This document shows, one piece after another, positions 42,701 through 42,784 of a DNA stretch of 64,000 nucleotides (position 1 is its first letter; each line of letters opens with the position of its first letter). A program made the position numbers and the translations under genes. The notes beneath the pieces were generated by a model that saw nothing but the letters and a program-made list of their open reading frames with translations, was not told the DNA's origin and did not search any database. Source of the DNA: Escherichia coli 042 (GTDB lineage: Bacteria > Pseudomonadota > Gammaproteobacteria > Enterobacterales > Enterobacteriaceae); assembly GCF_000027125.1 (NCBI RefSeq), contig NC_017627.1, one strand, 5' to 3'.

Positions 42701-42784
42701 GCAGTAGCAGTAGCAGTAGCAGTAGCAGTAGCAGTAGCAGGAGCAGGAGCAGGAGCAGGAGCAGGAGCAGGAGCAGGAGCAGGA
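42701..42784. repeat. Hexanucleotide microsatellite (GCAGTA)6 followed by (GCAGGA)8
   Basis: Perfect tandem hexamers visible in the sequence. Confidence 0.9.

Follow-up and report, generated by a model that had tools for sequence, protein, structure and literature searches.

The window analysed here, that is, the whole stretch of 64,000 nucleotides (64 kb), is an F-like (IncF) conjugative plasmid, and a perfect hexanucleotide array lies in its leading region. The Rfam matches in the window comprise the traJ 5'UTR/FinP, CopA, sok and tra antisense RNAs. On the plus strand, positions 34333-34349 match exactly the 17-mer of the F nic site (oriT). The plus strand is accordingly the transferred (T) strand, and coordinates above ca 34.3 kb belong to the leading region. 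The leading-region genes near the array are all on the minus strand, and the order of transcription is the DUF3560 gene, the methyltransferase gene, the array, a Frpo-like repeat (copy B), ssb, a short DUF905-type ORF and a ParB-like gene. The features are collected in Table 1.

Table 1. Features of the array locus and of the equivalent sites in the 64-kb window, with the evidence for each.
Feature	Position	Strand	Basis and remarks
(GCAGTA)6 block	42701-42736	+	exact string match; TRF; unit common to all 144 relatives fetched (CTGCTA on minus)
(GCAGGA)8 block	42737-42784	+	exact string match; variant unit, T>G on plus, CTGCTC on minus
Low-complexity tract containing the array	42664-42836		purine-rich on plus (transferred), pyrimidine-rich on minus (mRNA-sense)
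Frpo-like repeat B, 625 bp	42069-42693		direct repeats with 45442-46064 and 36499-36937; ssDNA fold
Frpo copy A	45442-46064		recurrence of the 625-bp repeat
Frpo copy C	36499-36937		hairpin part of the repeat only, 98.9% identity
Equivalent tract, Frpo copy A	46049-46140		no array; minus strand ...CTGATGTTGTTGTTCCTTTATCTGCTGCTCTGA; purine rank in top 1.1% of windows
Equivalent tract, Frpo copy C	36971-37132		0.775 purine, top 0.05% of windows; no ATG-started ORF
DUF3560 gene	43572-44933	-	ORF, first in order of transcription
Class I SAM-dependent methyltransferase, 187 aa	42962-43525	-	ORF; Pfam MTS PF05175, E 6e-7; annotation in relatives
GC-rich hairpin, GGGGCCGCGC-TCAC-GCGCCGCCCC then TTTCATT	42861-42890	-	RNA fold; likely intrinsic terminator
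ssb (plasmid)	41508-42074	-	ORF and annotation of relatives; first gene downstream of Frpo repeat B
ParB-like gene, preceded by a short DUF905-type ORF	39202-41250	-	names from annotation of relatives
Poly-Leu ORF, 94 aa	42678-42962	-	PGAP 'hypothetical protein' in relatives (pO111_3, others)
PA/TA ORF, 100 aa, TTG start	42508-42810	-	PGAP in relatives; extends into the conserved Frpo repeat; overlaps the 94-aa ORF
Candidate short ORF, 39 codons, MMLLF-(L)28-FFFLPL-stop	42678-42797	-	translation; probably not a gene

The array consists of two blocks, and exact string matching and TRF return it just as the initial annotation had described it, (GCAGTA)6(GCAGGA)8 at 42701-42784, between the two neighbours named there, Frpo-like repeat B and the methyltransferase ORF. 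TRF delimits it as 42699-42784, with a period of 6, 14.3 copies, 97% matches and a score of 130; both analyses thus find the head-to-tail short units of high purity that characterize a VNTR. Read in the minus-strand register, the window allele is TTC-(CTGCTC)7-(CTGCTA)6-CTGCTC-TTC, i.e. 14 units. A regex scan of the whole window for perfect arrays (units of 4-9 bases, at least five copies) identified this as the only perfect hexamer array, its second match being a 9-mer array at 8135-8332, inside a 783-aa ORF (7835-10186). A perfect two-block array of 84 nt cannot have originated by chance in 64 kb.

The 9-nt array deserves a separate comment. In full it occupies 8114-8337, with about 25 copies, of which 22 are perfect, reads TGGCTGTTG on the plus strand and CAACAGCCA on the minus strand, and would encode Gln-Gln-Pro. 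The minus-strand ORF that contains it is taken to be traD from its position, and the array is a candidate for a second length-variable locus of the plasmid.

We now turn our attention to the immediate surroundings of the hexamer array. A terminator-like hairpin of 10 bp is found 72 nt past the stop codon of the methyltransferase gene, and in relatives its loop reads TCAC, TTAC, TGAC or TGGC with the stem unchanged. Judged from the predicted fold, it is likely an intrinsic terminator; its T run is short, and a simple terminator scan does not have it in its list. The array is located 3' of both the methyltransferase stop (42962) and this hairpin, in a most likely non-coding spacer. A promoter scan of 41400-43700 gives no sigma-70-like site, and the Rfam scan of the whole window gives no match at the array at the gathering threshold, the sole sok match being at 37476-37647. 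The methyltransferase gene itself shows no damage in the window or in most other relatives. In the seven E. coli O111 plasmids examined that come with a RefSeq annotation (L010-L016 among the fetched loci, pO111_3-like, at about 1521-2143 of the locus), it is listed as a pseudogene with a frameshift.

On the other side of the array, the plus strand folded as ssDNA forms a long imperfect hairpin at about 42082-42400, with an energy of -199 kcal/mol and z = -13. The array lies some 300 nt beyond this hairpin and is unpaired in the fold save for trivial 2-bp stems. The hairpin is the Frpo-type ssDNA promoter, in which folding of the T-strand restores the -35 and -10 boxes; the array is no part of it, and is accordingly not a member of the class-1 ssDNA promoters. 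Repeat B corresponds to Frpo2 of F, the copy preceding ssb, which was defined upstream of that gene by Couturier et al. 2023 (PMC9849209).

This arrangement bears on two suggestions of the initial annotation. It had placed the methyltransferase in a gene block downstream of the array, which the orientation reverses: the gene is read from the minus strand with its end at 42962, and since the array lies 3' of its stop and of the hairpin, array length cannot set its promoter spacing. It had also proposed that the length could modulate spacing or expression. The genes driven by Frpo, from ssb onward, are on the other side, and with an unstructured array, a hairpin ca 300 nt off and no sigma-70-like site, there is no anatomical basis for a spacing effect. 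A function of the array in gene control is unsupported, as none of the results shows any. Another option considered was a phase-variable contingency locus, which was discarded in view of the 6-nt unit, the absence of a sigma-70-like promoter, the position 3' of the methyltransferase and the distance of about 300 nt to the Frpo hairpin.

Some observations on the Frpo modules are worth recording in their own right. In the F plasmid (NC_002483.1, 57.2-58.7 kb, L141), a single Frpo copy is found between the DUF1380/small-ORF genes and ssb. Compared with F, the window has at 42069-46064 an extra block in between, made up of a Frpo copy, the DUF3560 gene, the methyltransferase gene and the tract, and on this comparison it seems that a two-gene cassette was inserted and that copies A and B are a duplication on either side of it. 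A small-ORF-like end, CTGCTCTGA, falls exactly at the mosaic-segment junction, and among relatives one and the same upstream part continues into either of two downstream module types (L008/L009 vs the window). Short ORFs within this repeat are given the PGAP label (frameshifted) 'single-stranded DNA-binding protein', likely as artefacts of annotation.

Elsewhere in the window there are two CopA-like antisense RNA genes, inverted and with identical scores, at 58913-59002 (plus) and 63839-63928 (minus), and between them two ALIL pseudoknots (IS3-family frameshift signals) at 60998-61114 and 62237-62353. This suggests that the RepFII replication-control region is duplicated or inverted around tandem IS copies.

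The locus is widely distributed. It is matched in at least 4,488 PLSDB plasmids (from Escherichia, Klebsiella, Salmonella, Shigella and others) and in 3,838 of the 5,426 complete RefSeq E. coli genomes, and in both tables the lengths of the matched regions differ by multiples of 6. Counted as CTGCTN in the minus register, the number of units ranges from 1 to 17 among 138 sequences, of which 120 are metagenome contigs and the others are plasmids from PLSDB and RefSeq. It is important to note that the pattern used for the metagenome scan included the ATG of the short ORF discussed below, which biases the count of ORF conservation. Short alleles are frequent, with 1-unit and 1-3-unit forms being common, and long alleles are rare in metagenome contigs. 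A scan of the GTDB species representatives with a 23-nt flank pattern returned one match only and is uninformative on cross-species diversity.

The clearest view of the variation comes from very close relatives. Eight pO111_3-like plasmids of E. coli O111, picked because their region lengths differed, have 7, 8, 11, 12, 13, 14, 15 and 17 units, and their flanks differ by 0-1 mismatch over 2 x 1,150 bp (2,300 bp). Among the top-listed matches from RefSeq E. coli there are 14 O111 records, and these fall into eight length classes. Five clones from one parent isolate (EC0026B; H28-H32), on the other hand, have an identical region length. The spread of O111 alleles together with the single length of these clones points to mutation that is fast on an epidemiological time scale rather than an overnight one.

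The same polymorphism can be recognized in the literature. Hao et al. 2012 (PMC3320906, Table 2) list an intergenic (GTAGCA)4 vs (GTAGCA)3 difference at 23233-23256 between the pAA plasmids of strains 55989 and ON2010, as one of eight listed differences, 13 nucleotides in all, between these 72-kb plasmids. Checking NC_011752.1 (pAA), we found that this repeat is the locus studied here, with identical flanks. Whole-unit copy change with constant flanks, as in a VNTR, is thus seen in the O111 plasmids, in the 138 sequences and in the pAA pair. The proneness to slippage put forward in the initial annotation is supported by this range of alleles and by the differences between near-identical plasmids. 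Copy number varies across the related plasmids, so that the outcome named there as contradicting it, an identical number in all relatives and reads, is not what is seen. The remark that such arrays are unusual in enterobacterial plasmids turns out to be misleading, given the number of PLSDB plasmids above and the other repeats that other IncF lineages have at this position.

One metagenome contig (ERZ1032299 NODE-935, L078) diverges completely directly after one CTGCTA unit (…CTGCTACTGTGTAAGCGGCTCACC…), which indicates a rearrangement or insertion breakpoint at the array.

The two-block structure is a peculiarity of the window allele. All 144 fetched loci have the CTGCTA (= GCAGTA) unit only, plus a fixed terminal CTGCTC, and two or more consecutive CTGCTC units occur in none of them; the CTGCTC/GCAGGA block is, by this comparison, private to the window among the sampled relatives. 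Neither PLSDB nor the complete RefSeq E. coli genomes have an identical allele in first place, and the best full-length matches there are at 98.8-99.0%. The window allele probably formed by a T>G mutation (on the plus strand) in one unit, the variant unit then having spread to 7-8 copies, again via slippage. The pure CTGCTA arrays of the relatives fit rapid turnover, as expected.

Next, the coding potential of the array has to be considered. Its minus-strand frames encode Leu-Leu, Pro-Ala/Thr-Ala and Ser-Cys/Tyr-Cys, and the first two are part of the ORFs that PGAP annotates in relatives. The 94-aa ORF has an ATG start overlapping the methyltransferase stop and an N-terminal part that spans the terminator-like hairpin; this part has a 1-nt indel in two relatives (L005/L006), and the ATG is absent in a third (L009). 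Neither this ORF nor the 100-aa one belongs to a Pfam family, and both are probably annotation artefacts. Artefacts of this kind have likely been propagated over thousands of plasmids. Among the relatives L001-L016, PGAP has given a new WP_ accession to nearly every repeat length.

Inside the poly-Leu frame, a shorter ORF can be delineated, with the codons ATG-ATG-TTG-TTG-TTC-(CTG-CTN)14-TTC-TTT-TTC-CTG-CCG-CTC-TGA. The array would in that case code for the central part of a leader peptide or other small hydrophobic protein, the poly-leucine length of which would be varied by slippage. We consider this very improbable. The ATG-ATG start and the TGA are indeed in frame with the CTG-CTN leucine codons, and PGAP does annotate ORFs at the array, but the 25 nt before the start have no purine run of the Shine-Dalgarno kind, a promoter-like site is not found either, and the start is situated just past the terminator-like hairpin. 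The private T>G change is synonymous (CTA>CTC) in the poly-Leu frame, while it turns Thr into Pro in the PA/TA frame. The Leu run, however, varies from about 2 to 34 residues among relatives, which is hard to square with a defined membrane segment.

The conservation of the short ORF calls for some caution as well. Among the 138 close relatives, about 127 end it at the usual TGA; ca 8 have lost this stop through a TGA>TCA change, on three haplotype backgrounds, and there are two frameshifts and one truncation. Five nucleotide haplotypes of the 3' tail give one and the same peptide, LFFFFLLL; over the 27-nt tail, 5 synonymous changes are counted vs 8 non-synonymous or stop changes, which compared with the ca 26% synonymous expected is not significant, the sites being few. 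The relatives are very close to each other, the indels are all in tri-/hexanucleotide repeats and the scan pattern held the ATG, and for these reasons the conservation seen in the aligned sequences amounts to weak coding evidence. Slippage in tri-/hexanucleotide repeats gives multiples of 3, so that in-frame indels are expected without any coding function.

More distant comparisons give the same picture. Frpo copy A does have a similar 14-codon Leu-rich ORF, MELFLMLLFLYLLL followed by a stop, that ends at CTCTGA as the short ORF does, but an ATG-started ORF is found at none of the equivalent tracts of Klebsiella IncFIIK, F and Frpo copy C. The conservation across orthologs and paralogs that a small hydrophobic protein, toxin or leader would display is hence not seen, and neither is any Rfam family at the array for a partner regulatory RNA, antitoxin or attenuator. 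The array is most likely non-coding. The initial annotation had arrived at the same view from the low-complexity translations, and that part stands; it had overlooked the poly-Leu frame of the minus strand and the PGAP ORFs that run through the array.

It is also necessary to examine the composition of the region. The tract around the array, at the distal edge of repeat B, contains the most purine-rich 80-nt stretch of the window (0.79, vs a mean of 0.476 and sd of 0.071 over the 64 kb), and even with the array collapsed to two units its purine fraction is 0.68. On the 64-kb plus strand, no other stretches are in fact as rich in purines as the two tracts that border Frpo B and C at their distal edges. 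From its sequence, the tract at copy A looks like the unexpanded state.

Similar edges are found on other plasmids, and the array is an extreme case of this general feature. In F (L141, 9990-10070), the equivalent edge is a near-pure polypyrimidine in the sense direction, (TTC)3TTTTTC(CTCTTC/CTCTTCTTC)n, and pO157 (L142, 640-710) has a shorter form of it. The Salmonella plasmid pSTY1-1810 (L143, 575-650) has about eleven units of CTGTTC, and Klebsiella IncFIIK has a CT-rich tract with neither a repeat nor an ATG. The metagenome variants include (TTC)3-8, an 18-nt tandem duplication in a C-type tract and a near-complete deletion of an F-type tract (L128). In this sequence comparison, the composition of the edge tracts is conserved, and their sequence, unit and length are not. 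The occurrence of a tract at every Frpo copy examined hints that the composition is maintained, and 'purely neutral' may be too strong a description. The tract may be a slippage-prone remnant behind the terminator, or a structure-free insulator for the ssDNA promoter.

On this basis one can propose that class-1 ssDNA-promoter modules include a purine-rich T-strand tract as a functional component, of which the array would be an expanded form, and that array length tunes zygotic expression. The high purine rank of the B, C and A tracts, the recurrence of a like composition with other sequences in F, pO157, Salmonella and Klebsiella plasmids and the unpaired state of the array in the ssDNA fold would all fit, as would the fact that complementary-strand synthesis crosses the leading region with a timing that is of consequence to zygotic induction (preprint 10.64898/2026.01.09.698686). 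We nevertheless hold this proposal to be unlikely, and the same degree of doubt applies to its specific variants, in which the tract is a non-pairing insulator of Frpo folding, an SSB loader or a spacer that times complementary-strand synthesis at the promoter. Some tracts are reduced to nearly nothing and others exceed 100 nt, the F-type tract is for the most part missing in L128, contig L078 is truncated directly past the array, and 1-unit alleles are common. The leading-region literature searched makes no mention of such a tract at Frpo modules, and a pyrimidine-rich sense strand past a terminator could be a mere slippage-prone remnant. In addition, the mapped replication stall is elsewhere: in F, stalling of complementary-strand synthesis has been mapped only to the ssp2 hairpin stem (preprint 10.64898/2026.01.09.698686).

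The idea that the purine tract itself stalls complementary-strand synthesis was also considered; it is unsupported, the F stall being at the ssp2 stem. A DnaG (CTG) priming site is ruled out by the location of the CTG triplets on the non-transferred strand. The broadest formulation, that the purine-rich, unpaired and repeat-unstable edge tract of every class-1 module is functional (as an insulator, an SSB-loading pad or a silencing-timing spacer), with the array as a tuning knob of early expression, we regard as decidedly unlikely. If the edge tract were functional, it would be an extra component for a promoter class that is under active study.

A final possibility is that the RNA of the tract, which is C-rich, G-poor and unstructured, is a Rho-loading (rut) site that backs the weak terminator and shields Frpo/ssb from read-through. 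From 42678 to 42860, the minus-sense RNA contains 58 C vs 37 G and is 70% pyrimidine, and in the centroid fold it is largely unpaired over the array; it would be untranslated if the short ORF is unused. The short U-tract of the hairpin, and its being missed by the simple scan, could be seen as leaving room for such a backup. However, the preferred ligand of the Rho primary site is a YC dinucleotide, and the common unit CUGCUA has none. Alleles of 1-3 units are, moreover, common, and the argument is derived purely from composition. A rut site is in our judgement extremely improbable.

Taken together, we conclude that the array is probably a neutral or nearly neutral hexanucleotide VNTR that replication slippage has generated and sustains, in a pyrimidine-rich spacer that is non-coding. 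The sequences show the anatomy, the polymorphism and the absence of ORF conservation in distant relatives, and the slippage mechanism and the neutrality are inferred. According to this mechanism, a short pyrimidine-rich proto-repeat, the unexpanded state of which would still be visible at the paralogous Frpo copy A, grew into an array by replication slippage or unequal exchange, and whole 6-nt units would then be gained and lost much faster than the flanks gather substitutions. The changes in copy number are most likely neutral, because they leave all frames intact, touch none of the promoter elements and fall 3' of the adjacent gene. That other lineages have different unstable repeats at the module edge indicates that the sequence is non-specific, which we count in favour of the VNTR reading. 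The array is thus real but ordinary, and its polymorphism is already recorded, in passing, in the literature.

The practical value of these results is modest, the main uses being plasmid typing and annotation clean-up. With eight alleles in eight length-selected O111 plasmids, the locus is a highly discriminating length marker for closely related IncF plasmids. The results also explain a recurring artefact, in which dozens of 'hypothetical protein' accessions stem from one non-coding repeat that changes length. For the long arrays, short-read assemblies may fail to span them.

It is instructive to compare the array with known systems. Like the Frpo/ssi class-1 ssDNA promoters of F and ColIb-P9, it is associated with a promoter repeat, which it abuts, and unstable tracts flank the other copies; unlike these promoters, it is outside the -35/-10 hairpin, and its sequence is not conserved between modules. 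It shares with the traD-like 9-mer array of the window the perfect repetition, the plasmid and a unit that is a multiple of three, but that array is inside the 783-aa ORF, whereas the hexamer array is in a spacer with short or non-conserved ORFs only. With the contingency loci of Neisseria and Haemophilus, which are phase-variable SSRs within promoters or reading frames, it has in common that a simple repeat of high mutability lies in a mobile or host-interaction region. It differs from them in having a 6-nt unit, which causes no frameshifting, in not being positioned between -35 and -10 boxes, and in that no switchable gene is identifiable.

Another counterpart is the (GTAGCA)n repeat of pAA (PMC3320906), with the same locus, unit and flanks, which was called intergenic there too. 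The difference is that pAA has 3-4 units vs the 14 found here and is without the GCAGGA block, and that the repeat is given there as a single line in a table. Among the papers found, none names the locus for typing, and the accessible MLVA papers give no repeat units or plasmid locations. It is conceivable that the array is one of the EH111 or other MLVA loci. In its behaviour, it resembles the bacterial VNTR/SSR loci of the MLVA type, with perfect head-to-tail units, whole-unit changes and many alleles among near-identical replicons. In contrast to the usual MLVA VNTR, however, this array is carried by a conjugative plasmid and can therefore spread horizontally.
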